In this document: positions 2,522-49,785 of the stretch, in pieces
Position numbering within the stretch: the stretch's first letter is position 1
How the letters are laid out: each line of letters begins with the position of its first letter
NCBI GenBank assembly: GCA_965208885.1
Contig: CBDBPS010000002.1
Span: 622,731-686,730, forward strand
Direction: 5' to 3'
From: Dehalococcoidia bacterium
GTDB lineage: Bacteria > Chloroflexota > Dehalococcoidia > UBA2979
Length of the DNA: 64,000 bases
Position numbers and translations under genes: made by a program
Notes under the pieces: model-generated
Seen by the model: only the letters and a program-made list of their open reading frames with translations
Told to the model about the DNA's origin: nothing
Database searches by the model: none

Positions 2522-4321
2522 CTAAGGGCGCGGCCAGATGGTGACGACCCGATCAGCGAGCCGACGCGAGCGCTCGATAATGGAAGCTTCATCCCATGAC
2601 GCGACCTGAATCAGCTCCAGGTTGAGTTGCAGCCGACTGTGTTCGGCGAGCCCCGTTCGCTTCGTGTCCCACGGTGCATTCGACAGCGGGTGTGCATTCA
2701 GGCTTCTCGTCACAAGCGTCAGATTCCCCAACGTGTGCACGAGGCGGTCGCGCCGTTCGATCGCCTCCACCGGTTCATCGGAGACTCCAAGCGGCCAGTC
2801 CCCCTCGCGCCAGCCCTGCGGCATCAGGTGCTCGATCGTGAGCGAGCCACGCGGGACGCGCTGGTGCTCGGTCTTGGGGGACCGAATCGAGTCCTCGATG
2901 GCCTCGATGACGAGCCGGAGACGACCTCGAGTGAGCAGGCTGTACAGCGGGAATTCCTCAATGGCTGAGCGCACGCGGGCATCGCTGGGCCAGAGCCTTG
3001 TCTCGGTGTCGTGCTGTGTAAGGAAGTCGCGGATGACCTTGTGGACCTCGCCCGGGTGAGCCGCAGGGAGACGGTTGAGGAGTTCGAGGAACAGTCGGTT
3101 GTAGCCCTGGGTCGGTATCCTGCAGAGCATCCGGCGCACGAGGTAGCTCTCGATGGTGCCCAAGGATTGCGCAAGCACGTCGTCACGCACATCCGGCTGC
3201 CCGAGAAGCCAAAGCAGGACTGGCGTAAGAACCCTGATATCCATAGTGCGCCAGCGGTAAAGGAACTCCGACAGCGGATCGTCGGCTTCGGAGCGCTGGA
3301 GGCGGCTATAGACATCGGCCGTCTCCCGAATGTCGAAGGCCACGGTGCCGACCGACGAGGCGTCCTCCAGGTATCGGCGGAACTTCAAAAAGACATCGTC
3401 CGTCTTGACCTCTTCCTGGAGTCGCGCCTCCAGCCAGTAGTTGAGGTACGTGTCGATGCGAGGCCTGACGATCCGTCCCTGTCGCACCTCCTCGCGCCAC
3501 CAGGGGTCATCGAACTCGGACCAGTGGTCGGCGTTCAGCCGCTCCGGATCGATGCCTTCACTCTCCGCGGTGTGGAGAACGAGATTCTTTATGAGGTCCG
3601 AGGCGAGTAGGGGCGTCCCTCGGGCGTTCAACGTCTCAAAGATCACGTTCGGGTCGTCGTCAAGGTCAAGATCGATCACGACCAGCTCAAGCAGGCTCCC
3701 TAGCGCAGCTTCCAGTGCCTTCGCACGCTGGCTCCCGCCGTCGTCTCCCGCCGCCAGCCACTGCTCGACCTGGTCGTGAAAGAACTCGTGCGCCTGCACG
3801 ATCGCGGAGTCCTCGAACCCCTCGGTAGGCGAGCCGTTCTCCATTGCGCGGCGAAAGGCTGCCTGATCTGCGCTCGAGGGCCAGACTTTGAAAAGCAGTG
3901 CGTCGTCCCCGCCAGTCAGGTCCTCGTGGTTGAGAACGTACCGCGCCAGCCGCCGCCCCTCGGCATACCCGCGCGCTTCAAGCACCTCCTGCGCGGCGTC
4001 GAGCAGCAACTGAAGCGTCGTCAGCCGTTGTTGGCCGTCGATGACGTGCCGCAGCTCGGGCTGCGATGCAGGCGAGGGCCGCTGCTGCACGACCACGGCG
4101 CCGAGAAAGTGCGCACCAGCTTCCTGCTCGGCGAGGGCGGCCCCTCCCTCACCTGCCTCCGCCAGCTTCTCGAGGTAGCGCTCTGCGATGTTCTGCACAT
4201 CCTCCCAGAGGGGGTCCCACTGATCGTCCTTGGTCCACACGTATGGGCGCTGAAAGGTCGGAATGACGTAGCGGACGTCCTTCAGAAACAGGTTTCGGAG
4301 GTTGAGGATGCCTGCCTTCAT
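2522..4321 (-). CDS. GmrSD-family DUF262/DUF1524 protein (putative Type IV modification-dependent restriction endonuclease)
   Basis: 599 aa. The N-terminus YVIPTFQRPYVWTKDDQWDPLWEDV is the DUF262 (ParB-like NTPase) signature (DGQQRLTTL is also present). The C-terminus IEHLMPQGW...LGNLTLV is the DUF1524 His-Me finger signature. Confidence 0.85.
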   Translation of the reverse strand: MKAGILNLRNLFLKDVRYVIPTFQRPYVWTKDDQWDPLWEDVQNIAERYLEKLAEAGEGGAALAEQEAGAHFLGAVVVQQRPSPASQPELRHVIDGQQRLTTLQLLLDAAQEVLEARGYAEGRRLARYVLNHEDLTGGDDALLFKVWPSSADQAAFRRAMENGSPTEGFEDSAIVQAHEFFHDQVEQWLAAGDDGGSQRAKALEAALGSLLELVVIDLDLDDDPNVIFETLNARGTPLLASDLIKNLVLHTAESEGIDPERLNADHWSEFDDPWWREEVRQGRIVRPRIDTYLNYWLEARLQEEVKTDDVFLKFRRYLEDASSVGTVAFDIRETADVYSRLQRSEADDPLSEFLYRWRTMDIRVLTPVLLWLLGQPDVRDDVLAQSLGTIESYLVRRMLCRIPTQGYNRLFLELLNRLPAAHPGEVHKVIRDFLTQHDTETRLWPSDARVRSAIEEFPLYSLLTRGRLRLVIEAIEDSIRSPKTEHQRVPRGSLTIEHLMPQGWREGDWPLGVSDEPVEAIERRDRLVHTLGNLTLVTRSLNAHPLSNAPWDTKRTGLAEHSRLQLNLELIQVASWDEASIIERSRRLADRVVTIWPRP

Positions 4322-4737
4322 CGTTCTCCCTTCGAAAGGGTCCGACTGCTCGGGGGTGACAGTAGCGGACAGTGAGGACGGTCCGCCGACTCTGTTCTAC
4401 GGCATCCACAAGCGTACGCGCGACATCACGGGCGGATGGAGGACTCCGTGAGACGCCACGGCTTCACGGTGGCGGTGATGAACGCGGACGTGGTGCCGCC
4501 CGAGCAGACAGGCCTGAACCTCATCGACTGGCTACGATCGTCTGGTTCGAGGCGGAGGTCTCGGTTTTCCAATCCACACGAAACGCTGCGTTACTCATGG
4601 GCCGTGAGTTTGCTTTCACAGGGCGGGTAGAGCCCGGCCCCTCATGAGGGCTGACACGCGCTACGGGATCCTCCGGGCACGATACCTTGGACGAGATGGG
4701 GAGCGCGACCTATCGTAGCCTGAGGAGAAGGGACGGC

Positions 4738-6726
4738 GTGAGCCGAGTGAGCGCTCTGAACATCAGCAGCTTCATCTGGGGCATCGCGGACGATGTACTG
4801 CGGGATGTCTACGTCCGGGGCAAGTACCGAGACGTCATCCTGCCCATGACGGTCATCCGCCGCCTCGATGCGGTCCTCGAACCAACCAAGGACGATGTGC
4901 TCCGCATGAAGGAGCAACTCGACTCAGCCGGCATCACCAACCAGGACAGTGCGCTGCGTCAGGCGTCAGGCGAGGCCTTCTACAACACGTCGCCTTTCCG
5001 TCTCCGCGACCTCACATCCCGCGGGAGGCAACAGCAGCTTCAGGCCGATTTCGAGGCGTACCTCGACGGCTTCTCACCCAACGTTCAGGAGGTCCTGGAG
5101 AAGTTCAAGTTCCGCAATCAGGTCCCCACACTCGTCGAGGCCGATGCGCTGGGCTTCCTGCTCGAGAAGTTCCTCGACCCATCGACCAATCTCAGCCCCC
5201 GCCCGGTTCTGAACGGCGACGGCTCCGTGCGTCTCGACGGTCTCGACAACCACGGCATGGGCACGGTCTTCGAGGAGCTCATCCGCCGCTTCAACGAAGA
5301 GAACAACGAGGAGGCCGGCGAGCACTTCACCCCCCGCGACGTGGTGCAGCTCATGGCGCGCCTCGTCTTCCTGCCCGTGGCCGAGCAGGTCCGGTCAGGC
5401 ACCTACCTGGTCTATGACGGCGCCTGCGGCACGGGCGGGATGCTGACCGTCGCCGAGGAGACGCTGACCCAGCTCGCGTCCGAGCATGGGAAGGAGGTCT
5501 CCGTCCACCTGTACGGGCAGGAGGTCAATCCCGAGACCTACGCGATCAGCAAGGCCGACCTGATCCTCAAGGGCGAAGGGACCGAGGCCGACAACATGCG
5601 GTTCGGCTCCACCCTCGCCGGCGACGCCTTCCCGTCCCGCGAGTTCGACTTCATGCTCTCCAACCCGCCTTACGGCAAGAGCTGGAAGACCGACCTGGAG
5701 CGTATGGGCGGCAAGCCCGCCATCACGGACCTGCGCTTCGTCGTCGAGCACGACGGCGATCCCGACTACTCGCTGATCACCCGCTCCAGCGACGGCCAGA
5801 TGATGTTCCTGGCCAACATGCTCAGCAAGATGAAGCGCACCACGCCGCTCGGCAGCCGCATCGCCGAGGTGCACAACGGGAGTTCGCTCTTCACCGGCGA
5901 TGCCGGTCAGGGCGAGAGCAACATCCGCCGCTGGACCATCGAGAACGACTGGCTCGAGGCGATCGTCGCCCTGCCGCTCAACATGTTCTACAACACCGGC
6001 ATCGCCACCTACATCTGGATCCTCAGCAACCGCAAGGCGGCGCATCGACGGGGCCACGTGCAGCTCATCGACGCCACACAGTGGTACCGCCCCCTGCGCC
6101 GGAACCTCGGGAGCAAGAACTGCGAACTCTCGGACGAGGACATCCGGCGCATCTGCGATGCCTTCATCGCTTTCGAGGAGACGGAGCAGTCAAAGATCTT
6201 CCCCAACGAGGCCTTCGGCTACCGGAAGGTCACCGTTGAACGGCCGCTGCGACTAGCGAGTGCAGACCCGCACCGGGCTCATACCGCCAAAGAGATCAAG
6301 GCGCTAAAGGACGGCAGCGAGCGCGCGAAGACCGCGCCGCCGGTCATCAGGCGTGTCCACAAGGCGGGAGTCGCGCCCGACCCTCTGCGCGGTCTCTTCC
6401 CCGCCACCATCGACGGCGGGTCGGTAGTCGTCGAGTACGAGCCTGACACCAACCTGCGCGATACCGAACAGGTGCCGCTGCTCCACGATGGCGGCATCGA
6501 AGGCTTCCTGAAACAGGAGGTGCTCCCCTACGCTCCAGATGCCTGGTACGGGGCGTCCAGCGTCAAGATCGGCTACGAGATCAGCTTCACGCGGCACTTC
6601 TACAAGCCTGAGCTGCTCCGAACCCTTGACGACATCCGTTCCGATATTCTGGCGGTCGATCGGGAGACGGAGGGGCTGCTGGCGGAGATCGTCGGCGCCT
6701 CAAGTATCAGAGAGGACATTCGGTAG
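4738..6726 (+). CDS. hsdM: Type I restriction-modification system, DNA methyltransferase subunit HsdM
   Basis: N-terminal HsdM domain (FIWGIADDVLRDVYVRGKYRDVILPMTVIRRLD), SAM motif YDGACGTGGML and catalytic NPPYGKSWK. GTG 4738 is preceded by GAGGAGAAGGGA. Alternative starts are TTG 4687 and ATG 4696. Confidence 0.95.
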   Translation: MSRVSALNISSFIWGIADDVLRDVYVRGKYRDVILPMTVIRRLDAVLEPTKDDVLRMKEQLDSAGITNQDSALRQASGEAFYNTSPFRLRDLTSRGRQQQLQADFEAYLDGFSPNVQEVLEKFKFRNQVPTLVEADALGFLLEKFLDPSTNLSPRPVLNGDGSVRLDGLDNHGMGTVFEELIRRFNEENNEEAGEHFTPRDVVQLMARLVFLPVAEQVRSGTYLVYDGACGTGGMLTVAEETLTQLASEHGKEVSVHLYGQEVNPETYAISKADLILKGEGTEADNMRFGSTLAGDAFPSREFDFMLSNPPYGKSWKTDLERMGGKPAITDLRFVVEHDGDPDYSLITRSSDGQMMFLANMLSKMKRTTPLGSRIAEVHNGSSLFTGDAGQGESNIRRWTIENDWLEAIVALPLNMFYNTGIATYIWILSNRKAAHRRGHVQLIDATQWYRPLRRNLGSKNCELSDEDIRRICDAFIAFEETEQSKIFPNEAFGYRKVTVERPLRLASADPHRAHTAKEIKALKDGSERAKTAPPVIRRVHKAGVAPDPLRGLFPATIDGGSVVVEYEPDTNLRDTEQVPLLHDGGIEGFLKQEVLPYAPDAWYGASSVKIGYEISFTRHFYKPELLRTLDDIRSDILAVDRETEGLLAEIVGASSIREDIR

Positions 6727-7226
6727 TGGCGACCCGCAGAAGAACCTTCTTCAGCTTTCACTACAAACCAGATAACTGGCGGGCGGCTCAGGTCAGGAAC
6801 ATGGGTGTCGTGGAGGGGAATGCTCCCGTTTCTGACAATGACTGGGAAACCATCCAGCGGGGCGGTGACGCTGCGATCAAGAGGTGGATCAACGGGCAAT
6901 TGAGTGGCAAGTCCTGCGCTATCGTCTTGATTGGCAGCAAGACAGCCGGGCGGAAGTGGATCAACTACGAGATTGAGACGGCTTGGAACGAAGGGAAGGG
7001 GCTGCTTGGAATCTACGTCCACAACCTGAAGGACGGGAGGGGCGCGCAATCCACTAAGGGTGACAACCCTTTCTCTGGATTCACTGTGGGTACTCGGAAG
7101 CTCTCGGGAATAGTACAGGCGTACTCTCCGCCGTACACCGGGAGCAGGAATGTCTACTCATACATCGAGCAGAACATCGCCGAGTGGGTTGAGGAAGCAA
7201 TCCGGATTCGGAAGAGCTACCCGTGA
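6726..7226 (+). CDS. ThsB-like TIR-like domain protein (DUF1863 family), copy 1
   Basis: RRTFFSFHYKPDNWRAAQVRN, IKRWINGQL, AIVLIGSKTAGRKWINYEIE and GLLGIYVHNLKDGRG..KGDNPF are hallmarks of Thoeris ThsB / DUF1863. The GTG start overlaps the hsdM stop (TAGTG). Confidence 0.8.
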   Translation: MATRRRTFFSFHYKPDNWRAAQVRNMGVVEGNAPVSDNDWETIQRGGDAAIKRWINGQLSGKSCAIVLIGSKTAGRKWINYEIETAWNEGKGLLGIYVHNLKDGRGAQSTKGDNPFSGFTVGTRKLSGIVQAYSPPYTGSRNVYSYIEQNIAEWVEEAIRIRKSYP

Positions 7227-7675
7227 CGCAAGAGGACGCCACACAGCCAGCGCTCAGCGAAGAGTCCGGAGCTGTTCACAAACACCTTGAGATCATGCAG
7301 GGCGTGATCAATCGCATGGCGGAGAACAGTCGCTCCTGCAAGGTGTGGTGCGTCACCCTCGTTTCAGCGACTCTGGTGCTGGTGGCGAGGACGGGGGAGC
7401 CAGAACACGCGCTTATCGCGTTAGCTCCTACTGTCCTGTTCTACGTCTTGGATGCCTACTACCTGTCGCTGGAACGAGCTTTCCGACAGTCATACAACAG
7501 CTTCGTTCGCAAGGTGCATCAGGGGCGCGTGTCGGTCTCGGACCTCTACACCGTGGTTCCTACCGGCTCGATAATGCGCGGAGCCCTCTGGGCGATGTCC
7601 AGATCCTTCTCCGTGCCGCCCTTCTATGCCGTCGTCGTCGTGACGATCTTGCTGGCGTGGTTGCTGGTGTTCTAA
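7223..7675 (+). CDS. Small predicted membrane protein (about three hydrophobic helices), unknown family
   Basis: 150 aa. Amphipathic N-terminal helix (HLEIMQGVINRMAENS), then the hydrophobic stretches VWCVTLVSATLVLVA, ALIALAPTVLFYVLDAYYL and PPFYAVVVVTILLAWLLVF. Start GTG overlaps the upstream stop (GTGA). Confidence 0.6.
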   Translation: MTQEDATQPALSEESGAVHKHLEIMQGVINRMAENSRSCKVWCVTLVSATLVLVARTGEPEHALIALAPTVLFYVLDAYYLSLERAFRQSYNSFVRKVHQGRVSVSDLYTVVPTGSIMRGALWAMSRSFSVPPFYAVVVVTILLAWLLVF

Positions 7676-7686
7676 GTCGGAGCAGG

Positions 7687-8256
7687 ATGATGGCCTCCGG
7701 TATACCCAGGCACAAGGTGTTCATCAGCTTCCATGAGCGCGACCTCGAGTACAAAGAGAGATTCGTGCGCATGATGGGGACGCGCGTCGTGGACAGGTCC
7801 GTTGATACGGGGGGCATCGACGACACCGGCCTGAAGACGGCGACCGTGCGGCAGAAGATCCGCGACGAGTACGTGCGGGACGCCACCGTCACGATCGTGC
7901 TTATCGGTCCGCGCACCTGGCAGCGCAAGCACGTGGACTGGGAGATCGGCTCCAGTATCAGGAACACGAGGAAGAACTCCCGCTGCGGACTGGTGGGCAT
8001 CATCCTTCCAAATCACCCGGCGCACGGGAAGAAGCAGCGGCGTAACCCGCGCCTCTTCCCTCCGCGCCTCGCGGACAACTGCCGGGGAGATGATCCCTAC
8101 GCGCTCATCTACGATTGGCCGAATCCCTGGACGCCTGCGAAGATCGCGGAGTGGATCCACCGCGCCTTCGTGCGCAGGAGGGGGACGCCCCCGGACAACT
8201 CGAGGGAGTCGTTCGCGCGCAACAGAACGAGGGACTACCGCAAGGGCTGGCAGTGA
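7687..8256 (+). CDS. ThsB-like TIR-like domain protein (DUF1863 family), copy 2 (divergent)
   Basis: The internal ATG-ATG at 7687/7690 follows GGAG. HKVFISFHERDLEYKERF... and ATVTIVLIGPRTWQRKHVDWEIGS match the TIR-like DUF1863 pattern. The longer track ORF from 7345 overlaps the TM gene in another frame and is rejected. Confidence 0.7.
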   Translation: MMASGIPRHKVFISFHERDLEYKERFVRMMGTRVVDRSVDTGGIDDTGLKTATVRQKIRDEYVRDATVTIVLIGPRTWQRKHVDWEIGSSIRNTRKNSRCGLVGIILPNHPAHGKKQRRNPRLFPPRLADNCRGDDPYALIYDWPNPWTPAKIAEWIHRAFVRRRGTPPDNSRESFARNRTRDYRKGWQ

Positions 8257-8261
8257 GCGAC

Positions 8262-9707
8262 ATGGAGCATACCCCGCCCCTCCACCCCTACCGCTCCTAC
8301 CGGCCCTCCGGTGTCGAATGGCTGGGCGACGTCCCGGAGCATTGGGATGTGCGGCGTATCAAGACGTTCCTTCGTGAACGTGACGAGCGGGGCGACGATG
8401 GGAACCGCGAGCTACTATCGCTGACTCGGACGCAGGGATTGGTGCCACAAGCCCAAGCGTCCGAACGAATCGCACTCACAGATAATCTGGTGAACCACAA
8501 GGTCTGCAGCCCTGGAGACCTCATTATGAACCGGATGCAAGCGTGGTCTGGTATGTTCGCGATTGCATCTCAAGAGGGCTTAGTTAGTCCTGATTACTGT
8601 GTCCTTCAACCTGTCGGGACCTCCTACGACATGCAGTACTTCGAGCGCTTATTCAAGGTACCTGCGATCGTTGGCGCATTCGCGAGATATTCGAAGGGAA
8701 TAGGCAGCGGATTCAACCGGCTATACACACCGGACCTTGGGAGAATCGCAGTATCGGTCCCGACCCGCACTGAGCAGCGCGCCATAACCGGCTACCTTGA
8801 CTACGTGGACCGGCACATCCGGCGCTACGTCGACGCCAAGCGGAAGCTCATCGAGCTACTGGAGGAGGAGCGGCAGGCCGTCGTCAACCAGGCCGTCACG
8901 CGGGGCCTCGACCGCAACGTGCGCCTCAAGCCCTCCGGCGTCGAGTGGCTGGGCGACATGCCCGAGCACTGGGAGGTGCGGCCACTCAAACGCGTTCTGC
9001 ATCGCCTCATCGACTGCGAACACAAGACCGCCCCTGCCGTCAATGCGAGCTCGTATCGGGTGGTGCGTACCTCCGCAGTACGGGGAGGCTCCCTCGTGAT
9101 TGCAGGTACGTATTGCACGTCGGAAGAGGCATTCGCTGAGTGGACGAGAAGGGGAGCGCCCGAGCCAGGTGATGTTATTTTCACGCGCGAGGCACCAGCA
9201 GGTGAGGCCTGTGTCGTGCCCGGCGACCTCAGCCTCTGCCTGGGGCAGCGTACCGTCTTGATGAAGGTCGACCGAAGTGCTTATGAGCCGCATTTCCTCG
9301 TCCACATGTTGTACGCAGGTCCATCGCGCGACGAGATGGAGTTGGCTTCCCGAGGCTCTACTGTTCCCCACTTCAATGTTGAAGATATCGGTGTGCTGCC
9401 GGTGCTCGCGCCGCCGGTTTCGGAACAAACCGCAATCGTCGGCTACCTCGCCCACGAAACCGCAGCGATCGATACCACCATCGACCGCTTGGGCCGCGAA
9501 ATCGAGCTGATTGAGGAGTACCGCACGAGGCTGGTCGCCGACGTGGTGACTGGTAAGCTCGACGTGCGGGGGGCAGAGGCGCAGTTGTTGGACGAGGAAG
9601 GCGACGACTGGCGAGAAGAAGCCCGGCCGGGGGACTTCCTTGATGATGACCGCATCCCCGAGGAGCCCTCGGACGGCCTGACAATTGAGAGTGAGGTAGC
9701 GAGATGA
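8262..9707 (+). CDS. hsdS: Type I R-M specificity subunit HsdS (two target-recognition domains)
   Basis: The conserved region is duplicated (PSGVEWLGDVPEHWDVRRIK / PSGVEWLGDMPEHWEVRPLK), with the central and C-terminal coiled-coil spacers (IELLEEERQAVVNQAVTRGLD; LIEEYRTRLVADVVTGKLDV) typical of HsdS. ATG 8262 lies 5 nt after the TIR2 stop. Confidence 0.9.
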   Translation: MEHTPPLHPYRSYRPSGVEWLGDVPEHWDVRRIKTFLRERDERGDDGNRELLSLTRTQGLVPQAQASERIALTDNLVNHKVCSPGDLIMNRMQAWSGMFAIASQEGLVSPDYCVLQPVGTSYDMQYFERLFKVPAIVGAFARYSKGIGSGFNRLYTPDLGRIAVSVPTRTEQRAITGYLDYVDRHIRRYVDAKRKLIELLEEERQAVVNQAVTRGLDRNVRLKPSGVEWLGDMPEHWEVRPLKRVLHRLIDCEHKTAPAVNASSYRVVRTSAVRGGSLVIAGTYCTSEEAFAEWTRRGAPEPGDVIFTREAPAGEACVVPGDLSLCLGQRTVLMKVDRSAYEPHFLVHMLYAGPSRDEMELASRGSTVPHFNVEDIGVLPVLAPPVSEQTAIVGYLAHETAAIDTTIDRLGREIELIEEYRTRLVADVVTGKLDVRGAEAQLLDEEGDDWREEARPGDFLDDDRIPEEPSDGLTIESEVAR

Positions 9708-9925
9708 CGGACTGGGAGAGCTGCCCCGCAGTCGAGAGCGTCCCCGGCAAGGTCAGCGGCGCCTCCATCTTCACAGGGACGAGGGTGCCGGTCTCGGCCC
9801 TGTTTGAGAACCTCGCGAGCGGGGCCACGGTTGAAGAGTTCCTGGACTGGTTTCCGGGCGTCGAGGAGTGGCAGGTGCGGGCTGTCCTCGATCACGAGGC
9901 GCAGGCCCTCCGGATGCCCGCCTAG
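9704..9925 (+). CDS. DUF433-domain protein (antitoxin-like)
   Basis: GASIFTGTRVPVSALFENLASGATVEEFLDWFPGVEEWQVRAVLDH matches the DUF433 pattern. ATGA overlap with the hsdS stop. Confidence 0.75.
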   Translation: MTDWESCPAVESVPGKVSGASIFTGTRVPVSALFENLASGATVEEFLDWFPGVEEWQVRAVLDHEAQALRMPA

Positions 9926-9927
9926 TC

Positions 9928-10251
9928 GTGAGGATCTTGTTCGATCAGGGCACGCCCGCTCCTCTCCGGCGGCACCTCGGCGACCATGAGGTCGATACCG
10001 TGGCGGAGCGAGGGTGGTCCAAGCTGAACAACGGAGACCTGGTCGGGAGGGCCGAGGACGAGGGCTACGACATCCTCGTCACGACCGACCAGAACATGCG
10101 CTACCAGCAGAACCTCGCTGGCCGGCGGCTGGCGGCGGTGGTGCTGCTGTCCACGGCGTGGCCGTACGTGCGGCTGCGGACCGCGGAGATTCGCGCGGCC
10201 ATCAGTGAGGTTCGTCCCGGGGAGTTCAGGGAAGTCCCGATTCCACGTTAG
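9928..10251 (+). CDS. DUF5615-family PIN-like protein (partner of DUF433)
   Basis: GTG 9928 lies 2 nt after the DUF433 stop. VRILFDQGTPAPLRRHLGDHEVDTV...GYDILVTTDQNM matches the DUF5615 pattern. The upstream extension from 9868 in the track overlaps DUF433 and is rejected. Confidence 0.7.
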   Translation: MRILFDQGTPAPLRRHLGDHEVDTVAERGWSKLNNGDLVGRAEDEGYDILVTTDQNMRYQQNLAGRRLAAVVLLSTAWPYVRLRTAEIRAAISEVRPGEFREVPIPR

Positions 10252-10314
10252 ACTCTCCTCCTGAGGCGACGGAAGGCGCACCCCCCGGCCAATCTGCGCA
10301 GCGTCCCCGACCCA

Positions 10315-10632
10315 TTGCGAGGGAAGGCCGAGGCGAAAACGTTGCTCTGGGAGTGGGATCCAAATAAGAACCGAGCCAACCTTCGAGACCACGGTATCGA
10401 GTTCGAGACCGCTATACTCGTCTTCAGCGACCCGCTTGCGGCGACGGTTCCGGATCCACACCCGCACGAAGAGCGGTGGCGGACAATGGCAGTCGTGGGA
10501 GCGGCGGCCATCGTGGTCGTACACACTTCTCCCAAACTCGACCCGGGATCGGGCGAGGAGGTTGGACGCATCGTCTCCGCCCGCAAGCTGACCAGGCGCG
10601 AGCGACAACACTATGAAGAAGGACATGTCTGA
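10315..10632 (+). CDS. brnT: BrnT-family (DUF497) ribonuclease toxin
   Basis: LWEWDPNKNRANLRDHGIEFETAILVFSDPLAATVPD is the DUF497/BrnT N-terminal signature. The start is uncertain (TTG 10315 or TTG 10342 after GAGG). Confidence 0.75.
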   Translation: MRGKAEAKTLLWEWDPNKNRANLRDHGIEFETAILVFSDPLAATVPDPHPHEERWRTMAVVGAAAIVVVHTSPKLDPGSGEEVGRIVSARKLTRRERQHYEEGHV

Positions 10633-13600
10633 TCTGACGCAGCGCCAGAGGGACCAATTGCGGGCCCTGGAGGCCCTCCCGGACGATCAGATCGATCTGT
10701 CAGAAGCGCCCGAGGTCCTCGACTGGTCGAACGCGGCTCGCGGCAAGTACCACCGACCGGGCGAAGCACACGTCGGCCGTCCGCTTCGCACGACCACCGA
10801 CACGAGCGAGGGGGGGCTGGAGCGACTCATCTGCACGGCGCTGACTGGAGCGCCCTGCGACTCACCGGACAGCAGCGCGTTCCACGAGCGTCCGGCCACC
10901 TACAACGCGGGCTGGATCTGCGGAGAGCCACGCGACTACGACCGCGAATACTGCGTCGACCTCGTCCAGCTCGCCGCGTTTCTCCAGGCTACCCAGCCCG
11001 ACGCCGCCGAATCCTTCGAGTTCGACACGGATGGCCCGGCGCGGCGCAAGTTCCTGGCCCGACTGCAGGGCGAGATTACGAAGCGCGGGACCGTCGATGT
11101 GTTGCGGAAGGGCGTGAGCCACGGACCGCACCGGATCGACCTGATGTACGGCTCTCCGTCTCCGGGGAACGAGGCAGCGCGGGTCCGGTACGGGCAGAAC
11201 CGGTTCAGCGTCACGAGGCAACTCCGTTACAGCCGTGAAGAGGCCCAGCTCGCGCTCGACCTGTGCCTCTTCGTCAACGGCTTGCCCGTCGCCACCTTCG
11301 AGCTCAAGAACAGCCTGACCAAGCAAACAGTCGCCGATGCCGTCGAGCAGTACAAGCGGGATCGCAACCCACGGGAGAAGCTCTTCCAACTCGGCCGCTG
11401 CCTCGTCCACTTCGCCGTGGACGACCATGAGGTGCAGTTCTGCACCCAGCTGCGAGGCAGGGAGTCATGGTTCCTGCCCTTCAACCGTGGCTGGGACGGC
11501 GGCGCCGGCAACCCGACCAACCCCAACGGCCTCAAGACCGACTACCTGTGGAAGCAGGTCCTCACCCGCGACGGCCTCACCGACATCATCGAGAACTACG
11601 CCCAGATTGTGGAGACGAAGGATGAGAGGACCGGCCGCAAGAGGCGCGAGCAACTCTGGCCGCGCTACCACCAGCTCGACGTGGTACGGGAGTTGCTGGC
11701 CGACGCTTCGGAGCGTGGAGTCGGGTTCCGGTACCTGATCGAGCACTCGGCCGGCAGCGGAAAGTCGAACTCCATCGCCTGGCTGGCCCACCAATTGATC
11801 GGGCTGGAGCGAGACGGCGCCACCATCGTCGACTCGGTGATTGTCGTAACGGACCGGCGGGTGCTCGACAGGCAGATACGCGACACCATCAAGCAGTTCG
11901 CGCAGGTTGGCTCCGTCGTGGGCCACGCTCAGGATGCCGCCCATCTCCGCACCCTGCTCGAGGAGGGCAAGCGGATCGTCATCACCACCGTTCAGAAGTT
12001 CCCGTTCATCCTCGATGCGATCGGAGATGAGCATCGCGGGCGCAAGTTCGCCCTCATCATTGACGAGGCCCACTCAAGCCAGGGCGGACGGACATCGACG
12101 TCGGTCTCCATGGCACTGGGGAAGGCTGGCGTGGTGGACGAGGACGAGACGGCCGAGGACACGATCAACCGACTGATGGAGTCTCGGAAGCTGCTGCCCA
12201 ACGCTAGCTACTTCGCCTTCACCGCTACGCCCAAGAACAAGACCCTCGAGATATTCGGCGACCCCGCGACCGAGGGCGGGAAGACGCGGCACGCGCCATT
12301 CCACTCCTACACCATGAAGCAGGCGATCCAGGAGGGATTCATCATCGATGTCCTTCGGAACTACACGCCCGTGGACAGCTACTACCGGCTGGTGAAGACA
12401 GTGGAGGGAGACCCCGAGTTCGACACCAAGCGGGCCGGGAAGAAACTGCGCCGCTACGTCGAGGACAACGACCACGCGATCCGCCTGAAGGCCGAGATCA
12501 TGGTGGACCACTTTCACGAGCAGGTGGCGGGCCTTCAGAAGATCGGCGGCCAGGCGCGAGCGATGGTCGTCACGAGCAGCGTTCAGCGGGCGATCAGCTA
12601 CTACGACGCCATCCGCAACTACCTGATCGAGCGCAAGAGTCCGTACCGCGTCATAGTCGCCTTCTCGGGCGAGCGCGAGTACGGCGGCGCGAGAGTCACG
12701 GAGACGTCCCTCAACGGCTTCTCATCGAGCCTGATCGCCGAGAAGATTCGCGAGGAGCCATTCCGGTTCCTGGTCTGCGCCGACAAGTTCCAGACCGGCT
12801 ATGACGAGCCGCTGCTGCACACGATGTACGTAGACAAACAACTCGCGGGTGTGAAGGCCGTGCAGACGCTGTCGCGCCTCAACCGCGCCCACCCTCGGAA
12901 GCACGACGCCTTCGTGCTGGACTTCGCCAACGACGCCGACACGATCCAGACCGCCTTCGCCGACTACTACCGCACCACCGTACTCGCCGAAGAGACCGAT
13001 CCAGACAGGCTGCACGACCTCAAGGCGGCCCTCGACGGTTACCAGGTCTACGCGCCCGAGCAGGTGGACGATCTGGTGGAACGGTATCTCTCGGGAGCGG
13101 AACGGGACCGGCTCGACCCCATCCTGGACACCTGCGTCGCCGTCTACCGCGAGCAGCTGGACGAGGATGGCCAGGTCGACTTCAAGGGGAAGGCGAAGGC
13201 CTTTCTCCGAACCTACGACTTCCTGGCGGCCACCCTGCCGTACACGTATCCCGACTGGGAGAAGCTCTCGATCTTCCTGACGTTCCTCGTACCCAAACTG
13301 CCCGCCCCAATCGAGGACGACCTGTCAAAGGGGATCCTCGACGCCATCGACATGGACAGCTACCGCATCGAGAAGCAGGCGGTACGGGACATCCAGTTGC
13401 CAGACGAGGATGCCAAGATTGGTCCTGTTCCGACCGAGGGTGGAGGCCAGAAACCCGAGACGGAATTGGACCGGCTCTCGAACATCCTCAGGGAGTTCAA
13501 CGACCGCTTCGGCAGCATCGAGTGGAAGGACCACGACAAGATCGAGAAGGTGATCGCCGAGGAGTTGCCGAGGAAGGTTGCCGAGGATCGGGCGTATCAG

Positions 13601-13810
13601 AACGCGATGGCCAACTCCGACCGGCAGAACGCCCGGATCGAGCACGACAAGGCCCTCGAGCGCGCCATGACTGACGTGCTCGCCGACCACACCGAGCTGT
13701 TCAAGCAGTTCAGCGACAACGAGTCGTTCCGCCGCTGGCTCTCCGAGATGGTCTTCGCTGTCACCTATTCGGGATCGGCCTCGCCCGCCAGCACGGCGAT
13801 CGCGACGTAG
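10613..13810 (+). CDS. hsdR: Type I restriction enzyme R subunit HsdR with a ~55-aa N-terminal BrnA (DUF4415)-like extension
   Basis: Helicase motifs (SAGSGKSNSIAW, DEAHSSQGG, FTATPKNKT, QTLSRLNR) and an N-terminal nuclease region. The first ~50 residues (LTQRQRDQLRALEALPDDQIDLSEAPEVLDWSNAARGKYHRP) look like the N-terminal part of a BrnA antitoxin. The start overlaps the brnT 3' end. Confidence 0.9.
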   Translation: MKKDMSDLTQRQRDQLRALEALPDDQIDLSEAPEVLDWSNAARGKYHRPGEAHVGRPLRTTTDTSEGGLERLICTALTGAPCDSPDSSAFHERPATYNAGWICGEPRDYDREYCVDLVQLAAFLQATQPDAAESFEFDTDGPARRKFLARLQGEITKRGTVDVLRKGVSHGPHRIDLMYGSPSPGNEAARVRYGQNRFSVTRQLRYSREEAQLALDLCLFVNGLPVATFELKNSLTKQTVADAVEQYKRDRNPREKLFQLGRCLVHFAVDDHEVQFCTQLRGRESWFLPFNRGWDGGAGNPTNPNGLKTDYLWKQVLTRDGLTDIIENYAQIVETKDERTGRKRREQLWPRYHQLDVVRELLADASERGVGFRYLIEHSAGSGKSNSIAWLAHQLIGLERDGATIVDSVIVVTDRRVLDRQIRDTIKQFAQVGSVVGHAQDAAHLRTLLEEGKRIVITTVQKFPFILDAIGDEHRGRKFALIIDEAHSSQGGRTSTSVSMALGKAGVVDEDETAEDTINRLMESRKLLPNASYFAFTATPKNKTLEIFGDPATEGGKTRHAPFHSYTMKQAIQEGFIIDVLRNYTPVDSYYRLVKTVEGDPEFDTKRAGKKLRRYVEDNDHAIRLKAEIMVDHFHEQVAGLQKIGGQARAMVVTSSVQRAISYYDAIRNYLIERKSPYRVIVAFSGEREYGGARVTETSLNGFSSSLIAEKIREEPFRFLVCADKFQTGYDEPLLHTMYVDKQLAGVKAVQTLSRLNRAHPRKHDAFVLDFANDADTIQTAFADYYRTTVLAEETDPDRLHDLKAALDGYQVYAPEQVDDLVERYLSGAERDRLDPILDTCVAVYREQLDEDGQVDFKGKAKAFLRTYDFLAATLPYTYPDWEKLSIFLTFLVPKLPAPIEDDLSKGILDAIDMDSYRIEKQAVRDIQLPDEDAKIGPVPTEGGGQKPETELDRLSNILREFNDRFGSIEWKDHDKIEKVIAEELPRKVAEDRAYQNAMANSDRQNARIEHDKALERAMTDVLADHTELFKQFSDNESFRRWLSEMVFAVTYSGSASPASTAIAT

Positions 13811-49584: not shown

Positions 49585-49785
<201 letters not shown>

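Follow-up and report, generated by a model that had tools for sequence, protein, structure and literature searches.

What does a small membrane protein do between two TIR-domain genes in the middle of a Type I restriction-modification (R-M) operon? The question is posed by a 64,000-nucleotide stretch of a Dehalococcoidia bacterium genome (Chloroflexota; contig CBDBPS010000002.1, positions 622,731 to 686,730; hereafter the window), in which three tightly spaced open reading frames (ORFs) on the forward strand occupy the gap between hsdM and hsdS. An earlier note, written from the letters of the sequence alone, had taken the trio for a Thoeris-like cassette without a ThsA effector and had implied that it was new. 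Our analysis argues strongly for another answer, namely that the trio, thsB1-thsF-thsB2, forms an anti-phage system of Thoeris type V, a new example of a catalogued system. Its three genes, with lengths in amino acids (aa), are as follows.

6726..7226, + strand: thsB1 (ORF1), 166 aa, ThsB-type TIR protein, predicted catalytic Glu E82
7223..7675, + strand: thsF (ORF2), 150 aa, by homology the three-transmembrane (3-TM) membrane effector of type V Thoeris
7687..8256, + strand: thsB2 (ORF3), 189 aa, second, divergent ThsB-type TIR protein, predicted catalytic Glu E86

The genes are packed as closely as the earlier note had described. The stop codon of hsdM (TAG, 6724-6726) shares a base with the GTG start of ORF1 at 6726, giving the motif TAGTG, and the ORF1 stop and ORF2 start overlap by 4 nt as GTGA (7223-7226). 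ORF3 opens with an ATG at 7687, 11 nt beyond the ORF2 stop (7675), and its true start may lie one or two codons downstream; the hsdS ATG at 8262 follows the ORF3 stop (8256) after 5 nt. These junctions were confirmed on the sequence, and the peptide motifs quoted earlier are all present in the ORF translations. Because the codons overlap or abut, and because no promoter-like or terminator-like site was found inside the operon (4610-12450, scanned with E. coli-type consensus sequences that may not fit Chloroflexota), co-transcription of the cassette with the R-M genes is likely, as had been proposed.

The central protein carries the identification. ORF2 has hydrophobic segments at residues 38-57, 62-79 and 128-150, preceded by a conserved amphipathic N-terminal helix, which bears out the earlier description of one amphipathic and about three hydrophobic helices, and its AlphaFold2 (AF2) monomer model is all-helical (pLDDT 83.8). 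It matches the PADLOC profile PDC-M50A at 7.6e-31. The family is large, with 1469 matches in a 90%-clustered database and 4129 representatives at 50% identity (E<=1e-3), and it conserves an N-terminal helix of the form QxVIxRMAxNSxxxKxW and a motif LDxYYLxLE; an exact search of public contigs for the ORF2 of the window gave no match. The connection to an experimentally verified system comes through Bacillus thuringiensis DAR 81934. The published TIR (ThsB) sequence of that system is matched with 100% identity by one protein examined here (P0271), and immediately 3' of the P0271 gene lies a gene for a 141-aa protein (locus L037, 3773-4198), which we infer, from the adjacency and the consecutive IMG gene ids, to encode the tested ThsF. 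ORF2 aligns to this 141-aa protein by BLASTP with 36% identity over 88 aa (E 1e-17), and a profile of 112 ORF2-family members matches it in hhalign with a probability of 99.4% (E 5.3e-21, 123 columns, nearly the full length). Both proteins have three hydrophobic segments at the same positions. Because of the two matches and the shared segments, we regard ORF2 as a ThsF homologue and hence a predicted three-TM effector.

The genes on either side encode two divergent ThsB-type TIR proteins, as the earlier note had recognised. ORF1 matches Pfam ThsB_TIR (PF08937) at 7.5e-27, the PADLOC profiles ThsB (PDLC00433) and PDC-M50B at 2.1e-72 and 3.6e-63, the crystal structure of an E. coli ThsB (PDB 8WCF, 'EcThsB') at E 2.4e-46, and the B. 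cereus ThsB structures 9B7D (4.7e-20) and 6LHY (5.2e-20). ORF3 shares 25% identity with ORF1 and 39% with a verified ThsB of type VI. It matches ThsB_TIR at 1.9e-14 and PDC-M50B at 5.7e-11, and all 120 listed among its 2643 homologues carry PF08937. Its AF2 model is of moderate quality (pLDDT 69.8) and has weak fold matches to EcThsB (8WCF), the MyD88 TIR and the related DNPH1. In both proteins, the Glu of the (Y/W)EI motif is kept and aligns with the YEI Glu of B. cereus ThsB, which we take to be the catalytic residue of that enzyme; for ORF3, the alignment of WEI to YEI comes from a match to 6LHY with E 1.1e-3. The residue is invariant in each family, E82 among 15 aligned homologues of ORF1 and E86 among 28 of ORF3, so the predicted catalytic Glu appears intact in both.

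The published catalogues lead to the same type. Thoeris types V to XI were recently defined, for a total of eleven verified types (Yirmiya et al., 2025, bioRxiv 10.64898/2025.12.03.692087), and the statement on which the earlier note relied, that ThsB is paired only with a ThsA of the SIR2-SLOG or TM-Macro kind, is out of date. Type V consists of ThsB and a three-TM ThsF that is labelled DUF2270, is activated by 3' cyclic ADP-ribose (3'cADPR) and is modelled with AlphaFold 3 as a channel-like heptamer; 3'cADPR is also the product of the verified B. thuringiensis ThsB (Yirmiya et al., 2025). In Table S1 of the same study, the TIR genes IMG 2620551307 and 2620551309, whose numbers differ by two, both appear as 'DUF2270 - Type V'. 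ORF1 is 70% identical to the TIR domain of the former and ORF3 51% identical to that of the latter. In PADLOC, the adjacent matches of ORF2 to PDC-M50A and of ORF1 (as well as ORF3) to PDC-M50B lead to a call of PDC-M50 for the ORF2 and ORF1 pair. PDC-M50 belongs to a set of 145 untested candidates that Payne et al. (2024, bioRxiv 10.1101/2024.01.29.577857) drew from cassettes lying within operons for BREX, DISARM or Type I R-M. Since the pair is PDC-M50 and the TIR/effector/TIR layout stands in Table S1 under type V, the cassette would not be a new kind of system, and the novelty implied earlier does not hold. A full-text literature search for 'PDC-M50' and '8WCF' returned no paper, PDC-M50 being present only in a supplementary table, and the system is not described in a survey of E. 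coli TIR proteins (PMC11350192). The lead of a Thoeris system without ThsA is thereby removed, the cassette having already been flagged by automated tools as an untested candidate, and PDC-M50 is now tied to a verified system and to its mechanism.

A comparison with the nearest relatives clarifies what is shared and what is not. With type V Thoeris, the cassette shares one or more ThsB genes adjoining a three-TM effector of about 140-150 aa, the homology of the effector being nearly full length, and the thsB-thsF-thsB arrangement with these two TIR clusters is present in Table S1. Unlike the verified type V systems, which come from Bacillus, have one ThsB and stand alone, it has two ThsBs, a Dehalococcoidia host and a position within a Type I R-M operon, and its ThsBs belong to clusters common to types XI and VI. 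It resembles PDC-M50 in its profile matches and in its embedding in a Type I R-M operon, and differs from that two-gene candidate, to which no mechanism was assigned, in having a second TIR gene and a mechanism supplied through the verified ThsF. Several ThsB genes per locus are typical of type I Thoeris, and ORF1 aligns to the ThsB of the type I system of B. cereus MSX-D12 (E about 5e-20, Glu conserved). However, no SIR2-SLOG ThsA stands beside the cassette, whose effector is predicted to be a membrane protein and not an NADase. None of the type I/II ThsA signatures (SIR2, SLOG, Macro) was found in the scanned genes between 482 and 15687; their absence, claimed earlier for the whole window, holds for that range.

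Several observations weigh against the type V assignment. The verified type V ThsBs belong to TIR clusters other than those of ORF1 and ORF3; a tested V. cholerae type V system gave no defence, and the type V system of Bacillus sp. 1NLA3E was not activated by 3'cADPR (Yirmiya et al., 2025). The ORF2 model resembles no solved structure: Foldseek against the PDB gave no match at E<=0.001, and what it returned were generic helical bundles. The label itself is also a difficulty, as Pfam PF10028, the source of the name DUF2270, is not matched in hmmscan by ORF2 (E<=10) or by B. thuringiensis ThsF (E<=1), and only 5 of 112 ORF2-family representatives match it, weakly (best 9e-4). Effector annotations in the catalogue rest on cluster representatives and are noisy, according to the authors' own warning (Yirmiya et al., 2025). 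Finally, the scan for promoters and terminators depends on a consensus that is possibly inapplicable to Chloroflexota. The Pfam result has a practical side as well. No relevant Pfam match was obtained for ORF2 at any E up to 10, nor for the ThsF-like proteins of Klebsiella, C. botulinum and B. thuringiensis, and because neither ORF2 nor B. thuringiensis ThsF scores against PF10028 in a plain hmmscan, Pfam-based annotation will miss the ThsF family, with its more than 4000 representatives at 50% identity.

The alternative that survives best accepts the architecture and questions the chemistry. In this alternative, the ThsF subfamily of the window would answer to 2'cADPR, canonical cADPR or an undescribed molecule, and the two ThsBs might differ in product or act sequentially. 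We consider this a possibility to be taken seriously, if clearly the less probable one. Its appeal lies in the partners: ORF3 lies in a TIR cluster that includes type VI ThsBs, with 39% identity to a verified one, and the type VI signal is 2'cADPR; the TIR cluster of ORF1 (2661146773) also includes type XI ThsBs, for which no known molecule has been detected, and the two proteins are only a quarter identical to each other. One verified type V system that does not respond to 3'cADPR points the same way. However, the sole type V system whose signal has been defined relies on 3'cADPR, the TIR cluster is a poor predictor of the product, given that the same clusters pair with several effector types, and multi-ThsB loci are usually explained by breadth of sensing rather than by different signals.

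A fusion found outside Chloroflexota bears on the same question. On the Gordonia terrae plasmid pPAE01 (locus L039, 1578-3088), a ThsB_TIR gene is followed by a gene for a 340-aa 'HIT domain protein', and similar matches occur on Rathayibacter and Dietzia plasmids. The Gordonia protein has its HIT domain at residues 22-110 and a ThsF/ORF2-like module at residues 154-296 (hhalign 98.8%, E 8.2e-17). Because this type XI-like HIT effector appears to carry the module, the comparison suggests that a ThsF-like module is common to types V and XI. The window's cassette is like type XI Thoeris, which combines ThsB with a HIT hydrolase effector, in the TIR cluster of ORF1, and unlike it in that ORF2 is the TM module alone, with no HIT domain. 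As the ThsB partners come from type XI and VI clusters and the TM module is the one fused to HIT, we put forward, as a speculation that we think will rather fail than hold, that this widespread ThsF subfamily is gated not by 3'cADPR but by another TIR product, which may be the type XI signal, and that the flanking ThsBs might supply different or sequentially modified signals. If true, the ThsF-like TM region would be a ligand-gated membrane module shared across Thoeris types, and the Dehalococcoidia operons a route to the missing signal. The ThsB/ThsF pairing of the window is in any case an unverified combination of possible interest for the signal.

Taken as type V Thoeris, the cassette would work by steps borrowed from the characterised system (Yirmiya et al., 2025). 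Upon phage infection, one or both ThsBs would make a signal of the cyclic ADP-ribose type from NAD+. In the membrane, ThsF would form a ring-shaped homo-oligomer with positively charged pockets where protomers meet, and the signal would bind there; ThsF would then compromise the membrane, so that growth stops or the cell dies ahead of the release of phage progeny. Having two ThsBs probably broadens the range of phages sensed, as at other multi-ThsB Thoeris loci. If the genes are co-transcribed, one operon would provide restriction as a first line and abortive infection by Thoeris as a second. Given its homology to ThsF, the type V effector that has been verified by experiment, ORF2 is most likely an effector gated by a TIR-made nucleotide signal. 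Separately, Pfam PF24838 ('8xMP', octameric membrane protein) gave weak matches to B. thuringiensis ThsF and to 2 of the 112 ORF2-family members (E 0.012, 0.0013); a distant relationship between ORF2/ThsF and 8xMP is possible and would fit an oligomeric ring.

The genomic context in relatives shows which parts of the cassette stay together. We surveyed 32 genome loci that encode close relatives of ORF2; 30 come from metagenome-assembled genomes of Dehalococcoidia, SAR202 or other Chloroflexota, one from Nitrospirota and one from Eubacteriales. The linkage for which the earlier note had suggested looking is there: a TIR ORF adjoins the ORF2 homologue on the same strand in 29/32 loci, and TIR genes flank it on both sides in about 18 of them. 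Upstream stands an ORF1-like gene or one for a short TIR of 129-136 aa; downstream stands an ORF3-like gene or, in one case, a DUF1883-TIR. Because the TIR partners vary while ORF2 stays constant, the pattern fits putative swappable sensors around a fixed effector. The cassette sits in the hsdM-hsdS gap in 23/32 loci and without R-M in about nine, and the hsdM genes of those loci form two lineages, one with about 39% and the other with about 75-83% identity to the hsdM of the window. The gap often also houses AbiEi/AbiEii or PDC-M32 upstream of the cassette (locus L005, 3945-5485; locus L020, 4987-5858), which marks it as an apparent stacking site for defence cargo. The thsB-thsF-thsB form is thus documented as common in Dehalococcoidia and habitual in the hsdM-hsdS gap. 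On Klebsiella and C. botulinum plasmids, an ORF2-like gene comes after a TIR gene like that of B. thuringiensis, outside any R-M context, and because the pair occurs in such places, the R-M operon is, to judge from these sequences, a habitual carrier and not a functional requirement. Homologues of B. thuringiensis ThsB on B. cereus and Priestia plasmids have no ThsF-like neighbour.

A few loci in the survey depart from the common layout. Two have a second, divergent ORF2-like gene (about 40% identity) 3' of hsdR (locus L010, 11732-12169; locus L017, 11671-12081), and the first of these has one more TIR gene, ORF1-like, at 844-1329, upstream of hsdM. At three loci (L003, L023 and L029), the ORF2 homologue, around 6001-6440, has no recognisable TIR neighbour; among its neighbours are, at L003, a HATPase_c_3 protein of 771 aa, at L023, a protein of 681 aa without annotation and, at L029, a DUF499 protein.

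These patterns also bear on what the TIR proteins do. In CBASS, Pycsar, SPARTA and AVAST, TIR domains serve as effectors that deplete NAD+, and the two TIR proteins of the cassette could likewise be toxic direct NADases, with ORF2 as a membrane anchor, a sensor or an unrelated passenger, an option that Yirmiya et al. (2025) left standing for unverified configurations. However, the effector to which ORF2 is homologous becomes toxic when 3'cADPR is added, ORF1 is close to the signal-producing ThsBs of B. cereus and E. coli (EcThsB), and the ORF2 family remains linked to varied TIR partners as expected of swappable sensors with a fixed effector. We therefore rejected direct NADase activity, on account of the homology of ORF2 to a signal-triggered effector and the varied TIR partners around a constant ORF2, and consider it unlikely. 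The earlier note had left the choice between the two mechanisms open; the signal gating a minimal membrane effector is the half that homology to ThsF favours, and the direct NADase is disfavoured.

A functional integration with the Type I R-M system, in which the cassette senses R-M failure or anti-restriction proteins or needs Hsd subunits, is less probable still. The position in the hsdM-hsdS gap at most related loci and the translational coupling to hsdM would suit it, and there is a precedent, as some embedded systems, such as PrrC, monitor the host R-M system. PrrC is almost exclusively embedded (Payne et al., 2024). In contrast, the TIR and ThsF pair exists without R-M on plasmids and at the R-M-free loci of the survey, the cassette accompanies two hsdM lineages, the gap is also used by the unrelated cargo AbiE and PDC-M32, and verified type V systems defend without R-M genes. 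On these grounds we rejected functional dependence on R-M. As cargo between hsd genes of Type I R-M operons, the cassette of the window, in our reading a type V Thoeris, is comparable to PrrC, AbiE and the PDC candidates, but unlike PrrC, which is functionally coupled to its R-M host, it has no such coupling indicated. The weakest alternative, that ORF2 belongs with SLATT or with another known 2TM effector in a type VII-like Thoeris rather than with ThsF, was rejected as hardly credible: the small TM effectors of the SLATT kind are linked to TIR genes, and one of 112 ORF2-family members matched SLATT_6 (E 0.0077), but ORF2 itself has no SLATT match even at E<=10, its match to ThsF is far stronger and it has three hydrophobic segments, not two.

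The genes around the cassette belong to a larger group of defence genes, listed here with the profiles that identify them.

2522-4321, - strand: type IV (modification-dependent) restriction gene of the GmrSD family, a short way upstream of the R-M operon (Pfam/PADLOC)
4687..6726, + strand: hsdM, Type I R-M methyltransferase (Pfam HsdM_N 4.5e-22, N6_Mtase 2.5e-53; PADLOC MTase_I 3.2e-238)
8262..9707, + strand: hsdS, Type I R-M specificity subunit (PADLOC Specificity_I 8.4e-100; Pfam Methylase_S 7.8e-6)
9704-9925, + strand: DUF433 gene in the hsdS-hsdR gap (Pfam DUF433 5.5e-14)
9868-10251, + strand: weak DUF5615/PIN-like ORF in the hsdS-hsdR gap (Pfam DUF5615 6.9e-4)
10315-10632, + strand: BrnT ribonuclease toxin in the hsdS-hsdR gap (Pfam BrnT_toxin 2e-20)
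10613..13810, + strand: hsdR, Type I R-M restriction subunit (Pfam HSDR_N, SWI2_SNF2, ResIII and T1R_D3-like; PADLOC REase_I 7.8e-42)

The R-M set around the cassette is complete, hsdM, hsdS and hsdR each being matched by both Pfam and PADLOC, which upholds the earlier view of a Thoeris-family cassette spliced into a Type I R-M operon. Position 4687 marks the longest ORF for hsdM, and the true start may be slightly downstream. We are confident of a predicted operon in the order hsdM-[Thoeris]-hsdS-[toxin-antitoxin genes]-hsdR, with thsB1-thsF-thsB2 as cargo inside it. The small genes at 9704-10632 are context and lie outside the Thoeris cassette. The BrnT ORF runs at its 3' end into the beginning of the hsdR ORF, whose first 196 residues were examined for a BrnA antitoxin; none was present there.

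The base composition was the basis of the earlier suggestion that the cassette had been inserted horizontally on its own. The G+C content of the cassette is 60.1% (ORF1 56.3, ORF2 59.2, ORF3 63.9), in agreement with the estimate of about 60%, whereas that of hsdM is 64.1%, not about 70% as estimated; hsdS and hsdR stand at 61.1% and 64.0%. Relative to hsdM, only ORF1 and ORF2 are modestly lower. The island from 2522 to 13810 has 63.2% G+C, compared with 69.7% for 14000-64000, and because of this difference, the whole defence island, including the GmrSD gene, looks like a single low-G+C, foreign-looking unit. The case for a separately inserted cassette is weaker than was stated, and a cassette-specific G+C island was rejected, the entire island being low and hsdM at 64.1%. 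Elsewhere in the window, no tRNA genes were found across the 64 kb, and a cobalamin riboswitch lies at 49668-49745 on the - strand (Rfam, 44.2 bits, above the gathering threshold).

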